Virus record (IMG/VR): IMGVR_UViG_2698536414_000004
Reading direction: 5' to 3' (one strand)
Origin: a virus
Taxonomy: Duplodnaviria > Heunggongvirae > Uroviricota > Caudoviricetes
DNA length: 4,626 nt
Within the stretch, counting starts at the first letter, position 1; each line of letters opens with the position of its first letter. Made by a program: the position numbers and the translations under genes. Shown one piece after another: positions 116 through 3,963 of this stretch. Under the pieces are notes generated by a model. The model did no database searches, was not told where the DNA came from, and saw only the letters and a list, made by a program, of their open reading frames with translations.

Positions 116-3008
116 TAACATCCCAAACAGTGATTCACAGTACTTATTCAGTGAACAGGCAATATGCTACGCGGGAACTGAAAAGAATATAAACCAGATT
201 TATATTGATAATGAACCAGTATTAGCCGTTCCGGTCACTCAGGATGGTATTGTACCAAAGGCGAATATTGCCAGTAAGTATCAGGAATATCTACAACTTG
301 AAGTACGGTTTGGTGGCGATTATACCAGTACTAAATCTCTTGCAAGCCAATACGCCGGGCCGAAGTGGACAAATAAGTTTCTTGGTAAAGGCATTGTTTC
401 TGTCAGTGCGGTTATTAAAAAAACACAACAATCATTAGAGCAGAATCTTCTTGTGAATGATCAGTTCACGATGACTGTTGAAATGAAAGGTCAGAGAATA
501 TTAGACCTCGTAACAGGGTCAGTACTGGCGACGTCAAATCCACCATCAATTATCTACGACTATCTGACCAATACAACGTACGGGATGGGAATTGAACCGG
601 GATTAATTAATCTCGATACCTTCCTTGAAACCGCAGCGTATTGTGACCAGATGGAGTATTACGCTAATGGTTCAATTAGCTATCAAAGCTCGTACAAGGA
701 AAACATTGAAAATATCTGTCAGGTATTTGGCGGTATTATGTATGTACATGCAGGGCAAATCTGTATTACGACGGATCGTAAAACGCTTTCGGTTGCATCA
801 TTCAATGAAAATAACATGTTTGGTGCAGTACAGATCAGTACCAGCGGCGGCACAGACTACTTCAATACTGTTGATGCGAAGTACACCAATCCAGCCAGTA
901 TGTACACGACTGACGTGTTACGCATTCCTTCCGATATTACGATTGATGAGGCAATTCAGCGTGACGGGCAGGTTATTACCCTAAGCCGTGATTACTCTTG
1001 GTGCTATGACGCTGATGTACTGGCGAAGATGGTCAATGTTGATGTACTCAAGGCTAAGTACGCCTTACGTATTGTATCCTTCACCACAAGTGAAGGCTGG
1101 GATCTGAAGGTATGGGATGCGATCAACGTCAGCAATACTGAACTGAATATTTCAGGGAAGTTTAAGGTACTGTCAAAAGAAGTGGCAACCGATCAGGAGA
1201 ACGTTGGGTACGTTACAATCACGGCAGTTGAAGCCCCTGATGCAATGTACGATGGCGTAGATCCCGGTATCTGGTCACCTGGCGGTTCAATCCAGTTTCC
1301 CGAACTAAGCGTAAAGGCTCCCACGAACCTACAGGCAGTACGCAAAGGTAACACAACAAACGGCTCCCTTGTCGATCTCACATGGGATGCGTCACAAGAT
1401 CCGTGGCTACGGGGTTATTACATCTACTATAAGTTGAGTAGTTCCGGTACTTGGACGTATGCGGGAAGTACTAATACCCAGAAAACCGACTTTGAACTAT
1501 TCGGCCTCTCAGACACTGCGGCTTATGACTTTGGGGTTGAGGCATATAACAATCTCGGCCTTACGAGTAACAGACTAACGTTAACGGGATTAGTGCCGAC
1601 ATATAACTTTGCATTACCTTCCGTAACTGGTGTCGTACTGGCAAATCGCACCGTGGGGCAATATGAAACTGATTCTGCTGATTTCAATATCCGTTGGGAT
1701 AATCAGAAGAATTTAATCGTTAATGGTCGCTCATTTTCTGATTACTTCAAGTACTACACCATTAATATCTATAACGGTAGTGATTTAATCGATACATTCT
1801 ATACGCAGAGCAATACATTCAACTTTACGCTTGAAATGAACCGACTCAGAGTGCGTAAACCTACTATTGGCATTATTGCTCAGGGATTCAACAATGGTAC
1901 TTATTCACAGGAAGTACGAATTACCGTTGAGAATAAACAATGTGGATTAGTGCAGGGTGTTCAGTTCACTGGCGGGTTTAGCAACTTATTCGCCTCATGG
2001 ACTCCATCGACTGAGAGGGATTATGCCGGGGCAGTAGTGAGTATTGTTAATGGTACGAGTACTAAACTCTACACCAGTAATAAACCTGAATTTGACAGTA
2101 TACCCAACATTCCAGATGGAGAATATAAAGTTAAGGTCGGATTCTTTGATGTATTTGGACAGGACAATATTCAGTACTCGGCAGAGCAGACGGTCAGCAT
2201 TAACAGCAAATACCAGTTTACGGAAGATGATGCAGAACAGATTAATGGAATACTTGATCTCGATGATCGTCTGAATGAGACAATTGAAAATGCAGTTAAT
2301 GAAAGTAATGAATACACCAATACGCAAATCTCTACATTGAAAAACACGGTAGACGGAAACACGGCAAGCATAACAAATCTAAATCAGACTGTAGCGGATA
2401 ATGACACAGCACAATCACAGGCAGTTACACAGCTACGTAGTGATGTGAACGGGCAGATTGCCACGGTTAACCAGCAGATGAGTACAAAGGCAACTGCAAG
2501 CACTGTAGACAGCCAGTACTCATTGTCCGTCAATGCTAACGGTACTGTAGCGGGTATCCGTCTTGTTGCTTCTCAGGGAACGAGTAACAACAGTGCTATC
2601 TATTTCGCAGCAGATAAATTTATTGTCAGCGGCAGTAGTGCGGCGACAGTAGGCGGTACGGCTCCATTCTCAATCGTGAATGGTACTACCTACATCAAAA
2701 CATCCATGATTCAGGCGGCAAGTATCGGTACTGGTTACATCGCAGATGCAGCGATCACAAATGCGAAAATTGCCAATGCCAGTATTAATGCAGCAAAAAT
2801 TATCGATGGTGAAATTACCAATGCGAAAATTGGTGCCACGATACAAAGTACTAACTATGTTGCCAACTCTACAGGATGGCAGATAAATAAATCAGGTACT
2901 TTCTATATTAATGGATCTGGTGGCACAGGTAAGATGGTTATCAGTAATAACCTTATTCAGATCTACGATAACAATAATAAATTACGTGTAAGAATGGGGT
3001 TGTGGTAA
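102..3008 (+). CDS. Phage host specificity / tail tip (central tail fiber) protein, lambda gpJ-like, N-terminally truncated by IS1 (native coding sequence begins at 116; possible pseudogene or IS1-fused remnant)
   Basis: 968-codon ORF, stop TAA 3006-3008. Blocks resembling lambda gpJ as I recall it: GQRILDL ... YGMG (Y160 at nt 579) ... YCDQ; a coiled-coil-like segment followed by [10 protein letters not shown]...[11 protein letters not shown] (compare J VAGIGL...FLVAANRIAFI); [27 protein letters not shown] (compare J TIAENCTINGTLRAEKIVGDI). Three FN3-like beta-sandwich segments at about residues 400-700. The frame is open from the stop at 84-86 through the IS1 boundary at 115/116. The only start before nt 453 is TTG at 102, inside the IS1 inverted repeat, so the native 5' end is missing (roughly 100-130 codons by comparison with J). 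Confidence 0.85.
2754..2843 (+). repeat. In-frame tandem coding repeat, 3 x 30 nt ([10 protein letters not shown] / [10 protein letters not shown] / [10 protein letters not shown]) within the J-like gene
   Basis: The 10-residue period is read directly from the translation. Nucleotide direct repeat acaaatgcgaaaattg (2757-2772) and accaatgcgaaaattg (2817-2832), 15 of 16 identical, 60 nt apart. Confidence 0.75.
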
Positions 3009-3307
3009 TGGCACAGGGTTTACAATGCTGGGATGCATCTGGACGATTAATTGTCGATATTGGTGATTACAACATGCGGTACATGGGATCAGTCAATCTT
3101 AATGTATCGGCTGGTAGTACTACATCATGGAATGTAGCCTGGTCGGGTATGCGTCCAACGGGTTGGTTGGCAGTAATGCGAGTGAGTCAGTACTGGAATG
3201 AGTTTTACTGTATTCCGGGTACTAACGCTTTCACCGTTCAATATCTTCCAGTGAGTGGCGTTTATGCCCAAACATTAACATTCGATATATACAAATATGA
3301 CGTGTAA
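3008..3307 (+). CDS. Hypothetical protein, small tail-tip-associated module (about 99 aa); paralogous to the N-terminus of the next ORF
   Basis: ORF in the -1 frame relative to the J-like gene. ATG at 3008 overlaps the J stop (TAATG); an alternative GTG lies at 3002. Stop TAA 3305-3307. N-terminus [20 protein letters not shown] aligns with MSGFQVYNSAGALTIDSD of the next ORF. No signal peptide. Only weak G-rich Shine-Dalgarno (GGGG at 2996-2999), so expression probably depends on translational coupling. Confidence 0.6.
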   Translation: MAQGLQCWDASGRLIVDIGDYNMRYMGSVNLNVSAGSTTSWNVAWSGMRPTGWLAVMRVSQYWNEFYCIPGTNAFTVQYLPVSGVYAQTLTFDIYKYDV

Positions 3308-3315
3308 GGATCACT

Positions 3316-3963
3316 ATGTCAGGTTTTCAGGTTTACAATTCAGCAGGTGCTCTTACGATAGATTCCGATAATAAATCGGTCGTAATGAGTTCCGTTAAAG
3401 CAATGGGCACACTCTCAGATACAGGGTATTACCTCATTAACAGTGCTTTTGGTAATGGCAGTACGTTGGGGTATCTGCCTCTAAATTTCTTCCCCAATAC
3501 GGGACTACGCTGGTTCCAGCTACAGACAAATGGAAAGTACTGTTTTCCCGGCTCGGCAATGTTCGAGGCAGGTTCAGGGCGGTTCATGCTCTCCAGTAAT
3601 ACCACGGCTCTTACATCGGGCTATCTCGATGTGTATAACAGTGCTGGAACATTGATCTGGTCTGCTGCCAGTGCGGGTACAATGCCACGTATTCAGGGTT
3701 TCCTTACCGTGCCATCCTCTCATGATCTCGGTACTGCCTTGACGCTTACGACGAGTTTTGCCGATCCGTGGATATGCATTAGTCAGTGTCCGGGCAACAT
3801 ATCCGATGATGGCGGCACAGTTGGCTATTCCGGCATTCTCATTAAAAGGAATAGCAGTACTTCATTCTCTTTACAGTATGTGAATAAGAACCAGAAGGCA
3901 TATCGACAGGCAATGGGGAACAGCGGATTTCAAATTGCTTTAGCAAGTTTCACTGGTTATTGA
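3316..3963 (+). CDS. Hypothetical protein (215 aa), internally duplicated two-module protein; candidate tail-tip / receptor-binding accessory of unknown function
   Basis: ATG at 3316 preceded by Shine-Dalgarno AAGGA (3306-3310, 5 nt spacer); stop TGA 3961-3963. N-terminal GFQVYNSAGALTID is repeated at residue ~102 as GYLDVYNSAGTLIW (nt 3619 onward). Ser/Thr/Gly/Asn-rich, no hydrophobic leader. Confidence 0.7.
   Translation: MSGFQVYNSAGALTIDSDNKSVVMSSVKAMGTLSDTGYYLINSAFGNGSTLGYLPLNFFPNTGLRWFQLQTNGKYCFPGSAMFEAGSGRFMLSSNTTALTSGYLDVYNSAGTLIWSAASAGTMPRIQGFLTVPSSHDLGTALTLTTSFADPWICISQCPGNISDDGGTVGYSGILIKRNSSTSFSLQYVNKNQKAYRQAMGNSGFQIALASFTGY

Follow-up and report, generated by a model that had tools for sequence, protein, structure and literature searches.

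The junction between a J-like central tail fibre gene and the two small open reading frames (ORFs) that follow it, ORF2 and ORF3, was analyzed in a stretch of 4626 bases of virus DNA (IMG/VR record IMGVR_UViG_2698536414_000004; Caudoviricetes), which as a whole is referred to below as the window. The TAA codon at positions 3006-3008 is the natural end of the J-like gene, an ordinary gene boundary and not a frameshift. The locus as a whole is best explained by a J-type fibre that ends there naturally and by a conserved module of two separate genes, ORF2 and ORF3, whose products are predicted to dock at the fibre tip; the probability of this reading is put at about 0.82. Underlying it are the gene boundary itself, the family membership of the two small proteins, their synteny with relatives in other phages and the fold match of ORF3, all observed directly.

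A preliminary description of this DNA, made from the letters alone, had the J-like ORF stop at TAA 3006-3008 and ORF2, of 99 amino acids (aa), begin at ATG 3008-3010 in the -1 frame relative to J. These coordinates are correct: stop and start share one base in the sequence TAATG (3006-3010, plus strand). The ORF2 frame is indeed open from 2981, directly after a TAA at 2978-2980. The zero-frame codons up to the J stop read TTA CGT GTA AGA ATG GGG TTG TGG TAA, and a Shine-Dalgarno-like element GGGGT lies 7 nucleotides (nt) upstream, inside the MGLW codons. The earliest possible start codon of ORF2 is GTG 3002. ATG 3008 is the likely start, however, because homologues that do not overlap J begin with M(A/S)(Q/A)GLQCW. 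Five independent assemblies have exactly the same 81 nt across the junction, and a sixth differs by one substitution (T3000G, L to V). The G/T-rich run is therefore no indel hotspot here. A promoter and terminator scan of positions 2700-4010 gave no signal above shuffle expectation, and none at the junction.

Comparison with relatives revealed the same J end in several phages. The C-terminal peptide LRVRMGL(W/F), directly followed by the stop codon, is common to the J-like proteins of the window, of phages HK639, LLS and IsaakIselin (F there) and of a prophage in E. coli 14EC007. The HK639 junction, ATGGGGTTATGGTAATGCC, has the same TAATG, as has the Klebsiella locus L010, and LLS and N15 have TGATG. 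Other arrangements were found as well. In the E. coli prophages L006-L008, J ends with MGLW and two stop codons, and an extra ORF of 74 aa precedes ORF2. In L012, MGVW and two stop codons are followed by a 12-nt spacer before ORF2, and the gap behind the J of T1 spans 45 nt and has an annotated terminator. In the Drexlerviridae the ORF2/ORF3 pair lies beside J on the opposite strand and is transcribed towards J. The same J end is thus found in working phages and where ORF2 is not adjacent, and the boundary is therefore natural. Since distant phages end J at the same position and with the same peptide, often with the overlap as well, the TAATG arrangement is more than chance. The extra 74-aa ORF of L006-L008 (5777-6001; MVINKGEVKLISSPFF...) itself overlaps the ORF2 start with its stop codon as TAATG. 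In the Klebsiella loci L009 and L011 (around 5740-5775) J is truly frameshifted within the ITNAKI repeat region compared to L010, by a one-base length difference beside a short diverged stretch; J is called there as 928 aa against 1006 aa, and the LRVRMGLW end and the TAATG are intact downstream.

The preliminary description proposed an alignment to intact J homologues from related phages. HK639, LLS and IsaakIselin were found to stop alike, and none reads through this point in one frame. No in-frame fusion of J and ORF2 was present among the 27 close ORF2 clusters (96-114 aa), nor among the 104 proteins matched in an exhaustive profile search of 1.84 billion representatives. Nearly all of these 104 matches are 82-116 aa long and align from profile position 1, while the nine long ones (339-2426 aa) cover internal profile positions only, in 4-13 stretches each. 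Two of the long matches, P0183 and P0222, were inspected and turned out to be unrelated repeat proteins; the other seven were judged from the match table. As functional phages share both the J end and the genes behind it, and as these sets contain no in-frame fusion, the suggestion that the distal part is a separate, often translationally coupled polypeptide was borne out.

The J-like gene (3′ part, 116-3008, plus strand) codes for fibronectin type III (fn3) domains, a coiled-coil-like stretch and a PF09327 domain before it ends with ...LRVRMGLW. Its product matches phrog_31, 'central tail fibre J' (E 1.2e-61), and in Pfam it matches PF09327 (E 2.5e-21, ending at position 134 of the 139 of the profile), fn3 and, weakly, PF13550. 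No match to FNIII-A_GpJ was found in the J-like protein of this prophage, the intact copy described below included, and the SxSxxMxxLxS fold-switch motif reported for F-pyocin-type fibres was not found in the J of the window with a relaxed regular expression. The protein ends 21 residues after PF09327; this distance is ~20 residues in HK639 and IsaakIselin (Bas10). In lambda J, PF09327 (845-972) is followed by ~160 residues which include PF12421 (1001-1132). A Pfam scan gave no match to PF12421 in J, ORF2 or ORF3, and J of HK639 and of IsaakIselin also lack this domain. The fibres of the window, HK639 and IsaakIselin therefore have no built-in receptor-binding domain. With its last 55 codons J encodes the conserved end of the tail-tip fibre domain PF09327. 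Against lambda J, its C-terminus gave only E values above 6 in BLASTP, and a global MAFFT alignment, which forces the lambda C-terminus under the other J ends, is meaningless there. The preliminary description had noted that the J end and ORF2 together, ~155 aa, are close in length to the C-terminal region of lambda J. The length is roughly right. The equation of the last 55 J codons plus ORF2 with the lambda receptor-binding region has no support in sequence: PF12421 is not matched, and the ORF2 family, compared with residues 980-1132 of lambda J in hhalign, reached a probability of 0.07% and showed no similarity there.

Upstream of this end J harbours a series of 10-residue repeats (2754-2831, plus strand), namely ITNAKI at 2754-2771, INAAKI at 2784-2801 and ITNAKI at 2814-2831. 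From the last ITNAKI copy 58 codons remain to the J stop; the repeat and the early end had been recognized before, with a count of about 55 codons. HK639, LLS and IsaakIselin have a single ITNAKI-type repeat at the corresponding site. Compared to these phages, positions 2724-2813 of the window (J residues ~875-904) form a 30-residue insertion, which holds the two additional repeats, ITNAKI and INAAKI, and which probably represents extra turns of the distal beta structure. The Klebsiella locus L010 also has both additional ITNAKI-type repeats.

ORF2 (3008-3307, plus strand, with its stop TAA at 3305-3307) codes for a stand-alone all-beta protein of the phrog_7961 family. Residues 1-97 of the 99 match phrog_7961 positions 1-107 of 108 (E 8.5e-28), and an alignment of 28 sequences, down to 38% identity, has 9 invariant columns. 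Between ORF2 and its L006 homologue, differences fall on the three codon positions as 27/17/53, with 35 synonymous versus 30 non-synonymous codon changes. Judged from these sequence data, ORF2 is a real coding gene. The AlphaFold2 model of the protein is all-beta, with a mean predicted local distance difference test score (pLDDT) of 81, and the modelled fold is generic. Several distant tblastn matches share only the first 32-57 residues of ORF2, with 44-62% identity, as would suit a docking end that is conserved and a distal part that varies. When the ORF2 and ORF3 alignments were searched as profiles against PDB sequences, only chance-level matches came up. The gene is intact but unannotated in several RefSeq/PGAP and other records, namely at L002 14891-15199 (14EC007), in L015, L017, L018 and L019, and at L020 5004-5299 (Cronobacter phage ENT39118); in L016 it was called.

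ORF3 (3316-3963, plus strand, 215 aa) starts 9 nt after ORF2, preceded by AAGGA, and codes for a candidate receptor-binding protein of the DUF8377 (PF28254)/phrog_4524 family. Residues 1-214 match phrog_4524 over its full length (positions 1-230 of 230, E 6.2e-63), and PF28254 is found on all listed ORF3 homologues. Over 100% of the length ORF3 shares 40.4% identity with the IME347 protein and 38.2% with that of IsaakIselin. A single solid structural match was obtained with the ORF3 model: the Oekolampad (Bas18) receptor-binding protein, encoded by a gene of its own and solved in complex with LptDE (PDB 9RPT, PMC12685063). This protein differs from ORF3 in sequence (8% identity), length (254 aa) and receptor (LptD). 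In a viral model library, ORF3 resembles uncharacterised proteins of ~200-290 aa from Acinetobacter and Pseudomonas phages, with modest matches. For ORF2 as a paralog of an entire ORF3 domain, and for ORF3 as an internal duplication, no domain-level support was found: only a motif of 12-17 columns aligns.

This motif, which appears to form a hairpin, follows the pattern phi-x-phi-[WYR]-[DN]-x-x-[GN]-x-L. In all six frames of the window the pattern has four matches only, all on the plus strand: near the J C-terminus (2955-2984), at the N-terminus of ORF2 (LQCWDASGRL, nt 3020), at the N-terminus of ORF3 (FQVYNSAGAL, nt 3325; residue 4) and at the start of the second half of ORF3 (LDVYNSAGTL, nt 3625; residue 104). 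The J end of T1, ISVRDASGRLRVQIG, and the ORF2 sequence, LQCWDASGRLIVDIG, contain the same motif. Its recurrence in T1 and N15 is independent: N15 has it at the J end as well, the small proteins T1 gp32 and N15 gp22 have it N-terminally and the larger T1 gp31 and N15 gp23 internally. In the exhaustive search a protein of 313 aa, P0223, was encountered that has an ORF2-like N-terminus and three motif copies, near residues 4, ~110 and ~200; from its sequence it looks like ORF2 and ORF3 fused in one chain.

These findings suggest the following mechanism. A J-type fibre that lacks its own receptor-binding domain would be served by ORF2 and ORF3, encoded as separate genes of a conserved module beside it. 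The J trimer would end in a short beta structure, on which ORF2 and ORF3 may dock via their N-terminal hairpin motif, extending the beta structure of the fibre tip. Docked in this way, the two proteins would constitute a distal, exchangeable receptor-binding unit, in which ORF3 is presumably the main receptor binder and ORF2 a single-domain partner or adaptor. The receptor may be the outer-membrane protein YncD, as in characterised relatives. The one-base TAATG overlap would couple translation of ORF2 to that of J, an arrangement that is common but not obligatory in the family. A more far-reaching version holds that the motif is a universal plug-and-socket code, by which receptor binders of one or two domains extend the beta structure of the fibre tip and modules recombine within the motif across tail-tip ancestries, with P0223 as a fused pair. 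We regard this version as rather doubtful. If it were true, the lambda-like HK639, the T1-like Drexlerviridae, this pb9-type prophage and the F-pyocins would exchange receptor modules within the motif.

Several points weigh against the docking module. The motif pattern was defined after the sites had been seen, so that the count of four matches is descriptive and a shuffle statistic gives it too much significance. ORF2 is often skipped by gene callers. The Drexlerviridae pair is transcribed towards J, and translational coupling is therefore not essential. ORF3 showed no significant similarity to N15 gp23 in hhalign, and the link to the F-type pyocin proteins PyoF11 and PyoF12 via N15 gp22 consists of the N-terminal motif only. 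The presence in the virion and the receptor binding of phrog_7961 and DUF8377 proteins are predicted, and the link to YncD is a comparative-genomics correlation. With the proteins of YncD-dependent phages ORF3 shares no more than 38-40% identity, so that its receptor may differ.

Among the other explanations, the preliminary description had already raised the possibility that a single longer J lost or gained a base near 2980-3010, which would make ORF2 the out-of-frame C-terminal remainder of a pseudogene. The window is a degraded prophage fragment between IS1 copies, J frameshifts do exist in Klebsiella L009 and L011, within the ITNAKI repeat region, and one protein found in the searches runs from J into the ORF2 frame. 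This protein, P0195, a metagenomic fragment of 242 aa, is the sole read-through from J to ORF2: an HK639-like J leaves its frame after ...NNYVAGS and enters the frame of ORF2. However, the 45 residues between the J and ORF2 sequences are J's own C-terminus read out of frame, and P0195 is therefore an error or a mutant and not an ancestral fusion. Moreover, J ends with LRVRMGLW in phages that were isolated and form plaques, as it does at loci without an adjacent ORF2, ORF2 homologues have their own methionine at the same conserved N-terminus, and neither the 27 clusters nor the 104 representatives include an in-frame fusion. Compared to the five assemblies with an identical junction the window shows no indel. 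Close homologues in intact, working phages have this two-ORF layout, which in the preliminary description was to count for a natural split; a frameshifted J at this site is thus refuted. A programmed -1 ribosomal frameshift between 2981 and 3006, producing a J-ORF2 fusion as in lambda G/GT, could draw on the ORF2 frame (-1 relative to J) being open for 27 nt upstream of its ATG. Yet 2981-3008 contains no slippery heptamer of the X XXY YYZ type, a slip would destroy the conserved LRVRMGLW end, and the spacer, terminator, extra ORF or inverted orientation that relatives put between the two genes is incompatible with a conserved frameshift; such a mechanism is hardly to be expected here. That ORF2 is no gene at all but a chance open frame between J and ORF3 might be read from PGAP and several other annotations, which call no gene at its position. 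The pyoF11 and pyoF12 genes, however, are likewise omitted from annotations (bioRxiv 10.1101/2021.02.16.431561), and the full-length PHROG match, the conservation across genera at 38% identity with 9 invariant columns, the third-position substitution bias and the confident fold model leave practically no room for a chance frame.

A further explanation accepts both genes as real but takes their products for something other than receptor binders of the virion, either fibre-tip chaperones or proteins of the membrane or of superinfection exclusion. In PHROG the counterparts in T1 and N15 are annotated as membrane protein or moron, old annotations name T1 gp32 and gp31 'outer membrane protein' and 'membrane associated protein', and a chaperone role was among the possibilities that the first F-pyocin study allowed for (bioRxiv 10.1101/2021.02.16.431561). 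On the other hand, inspection of the ORF2 and ORF3 sequences revealed no evident signal peptide or hydrophobic helix, whereas Bas10 0024 has a signal peptide. The one solid structural match of ORF3 is a phage receptor-binding protein solved together with its receptor. Particles were shown to contain PyoF11 and PyoF12, which are visible as tip densities (PMC12874032), and calculations gave the T1-type 'membrane associated' proteins a low membrane affinity (PMC12309495). It is unlikely, though worth keeping in mind, that ORF2 and ORF3 act in such another way; the natural J end with a module docking at the fibre tip accounts best for the data.

The preliminary description also considered the DNA to be a decaying prophage remnant. 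This holds for the DNA as a whole and not for the junction: the window is a dead prophage fragment owing to insertion sequence IS1, not to the J/ORF2 junction. Its 3884 bp of phage tail DNA (116-3999) are flanked on either side by an IS1 fragment, and both fragments point the same way. Positions 1-115 (plus strand) comprise the 3′ end of the element and its terminal inverted repeat (...GTTGGAGTCATTACC) and cut into the J-like gene; in 4963 of 5426 E. coli genomes, window positions 1-152 have matches to IS1 copies. The second fragment (4000-4626, plus strand) is the 5′ part of an IS1, with the left inverted repeat, insA (4055-4330) and the start of insB. The InsA domains PF03811 and PF12759 are found on 4055-4330 in Pfam, in agreement with the IS1 assignment. 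This right IS1 starts one base ahead of the ATG position of the next prophage gene, and what the IS1 pair encloses is precisely ORF2, ORF3 and the 3′ part of J. The TTG at 102, from which the J-like ORF had been listed (102-3008), is part of IS1, and this 'start' is an artefact. The module is inert in this genome because IS1 removed the 5′ end of J.

Uninterrupted DNA, 99.9% identical from nt 116 to 3999, was found in E. coli 14EC007, in a prophage region adjoining mipA; in the search with the left IS1/J junction, the match to 14EC007 is 100% from nt 116 on. The intact J is 1067 aa there, and the copy of the window is without approximately its first 104 codons. The exact ORF3 protein is recorded in 320 blocks of the assembly collection. 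The IS1/J junction is absent from all complete E. coli genomes in the collection searched, and megablast of the phage part against phage and plasmid collections gave zero matches; the informative relatives came from protein-level searches only. In the intact prophage, ORF3 is followed at its 3′ side by a gene for a 90-aa protein with a weak DUF2730 match, at which point the window is cut by IS1. Upstream of J, the intact prophage (L015/L016 1-9693) has a tail tip that is not lambda-like, with a distal tail protein of the pb9 type (PF21430, weak), a protein of 207 aa and DUF6950, as well as a Peptidase_S74 fibre protein of 917 aa.

A seemingly early J end followed by overlapping small ORFs should thus not be flagged as a pseudogene, and the gene of ~100 aa after J is real, yet often missed by standard pipelines, RefSeq included. 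Through these results the known carriers of the exchangeable receptor module linked to YncD-dependent phages come to include a prophage lineage that is widespread in E. coli and has a tail tip unlike that of lambda. The short shared motif may mediate docking and could help in the prediction of host range or in swapping of receptor modules. Current understanding is unchanged by these results; the arrangement belongs to a known kind of module beside J-like genes.

The ORF2/ORF3 pair is found directly after J in isolated E. coli phages such as HK639, LLS, LMessi, CharmingMan, Eeyore and Flotzy, and beside J in many Escherichia and Klebsiella Drexlerviridae, including IsaakIselin/Bas10 and IME347. 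Infection by IsaakIselin and IME347 depends on YncD (PMC8594841, PMC6499177). The BASEL work and a 2026 preprint have shown that a variable locus next to gpJ tracks receptor specificity (PMC8594841; bioRxiv 10.64898/2026.04.02.716166), with YncD as one of four protein families at this gpJ-adjacent locus (bioRxiv 10.64898/2026.04.02.716166). By the family criterion of the preprint (bioRxiv 10.64898/2026.04.02.716166) ORF3 belongs here, with 38-40% identity over 100% of its length. The pair of the window directly adjoins J, and J is without a C-terminal receptor-binding domain. IsaakIselin/Bas10 0026 and 0025 are likewise members of phrog_7961 and phrog_4524/DUF8377, with ~36% identity to ORF2 and 38-40% to ORF3, and the IsaakIselin J ends with LRVRMGL(F/W) as does that of the window, also without a receptor-binding domain. 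The Drexlerviridae pair differs in being transcribed towards J, followed by gene 0024, whereas the pairs of the window, HK639 and LLS lie on the same strand as J with a stop/start overlap. The IsaakIselin gene bas10_0024 (L004 6037-6369), which is absent from the window, codes for a protein of 110 aa with a clear N-terminal signal peptide (MKKIMLAMALVAPLNAMA...) and is a candidate superinfection-exclusion factor.

Identical in three-gene order are gp23-gp24-gp25 of HK639 and their counterparts in LLS and other phages, which also share the TAATG/TGATG overlap and the protein sizes (98-100 and 213 aa) with the window, at 41% and 47% identity. The HK639 group, however, has lambda-type L, K, I and J, with FNIII-A_GpJ and one ITNAKI-type repeat in J, while the prophage of the window has a pb9-like distal tail protein and DUF6950, and three repeats in J. 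The ORF2/ORF3 module thus also occurs with true lambda-type L/K/I/J genes (L012, HK639). Phage LLS has, a short way downstream of its ORF2/ORF3 homologues (L003 6895-8844), a tail-fibre segment that can be inverted, with annotated inverted repeats and a serine invertase of the Fin type; this segment is a second, switchable host-range module. The PF12421 domain of lambda gpJ has the same functional position at the fibre tip, after PF09327, but is covalently part of J, and ORF2 and ORF3 are without sequence or profile similarity to it. A modelling study of 2025 proposed that the small Ig-like proteins of such modules resemble the lambda receptor-binding domain and cap the fibre together with a larger 'hand-like' protein (PMC12309495).

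T1 gp32/gp31 (101 and 229 aa) and N15 gp22/gp23 (100 and 225 aa) are like ORF2/ORF3 in size and in position after J. N15 gp21 and gp22 are also stop/start overlapped, and the WDAxG hairpin motif is common to the T1/N15 proteins and ORF2/ORF3. The T1/N15 pair belongs to other families (phrog_557/phrog_425), is linked to FhuA-dependent phages and follows a J that ends with RVQIGRLTGSW instead of RVRMGLW. The ORF2 family aligns with N15 gp22 over its N-terminal 44 columns only, with an hhalign probability of 72%. Homologues of PyoF11 and PyoF12 have been reported in T1 and N15 (bioRxiv 10.1101/2021.02.16.431561, PMC12874032). The F-type pyocins carry pyoF11 and pyoF12 directly behind the central fibre gene, on its 3′ side; the two are essential and their products are present in particles (bioRxiv 10.1101/2021.02.16.431561; PMC12874032; PMC13455828), although both genes are often unannotated in P. 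aeruginosa genomes (bioRxiv 10.1101/2021.02.16.431561). PyoF11 and PyoF12 are predicted to attach to the C-terminus of the fibre, were seen as tip densities and have been compared to Pam1 and R-pyocin structures (PMC12874032). The F-type pyocin is unlike the window in host and in being a bacteriocin, not a phage, but its Specificity Module 1 (the PyoF10 C-terminus, PyoF11 and PyoF12) has the same layout, a gene pair immediately 3′ of the central fibre gene. The same order of a pair after the fibre gene is found in HK639, LLS, L006-L012, T1 and N15.

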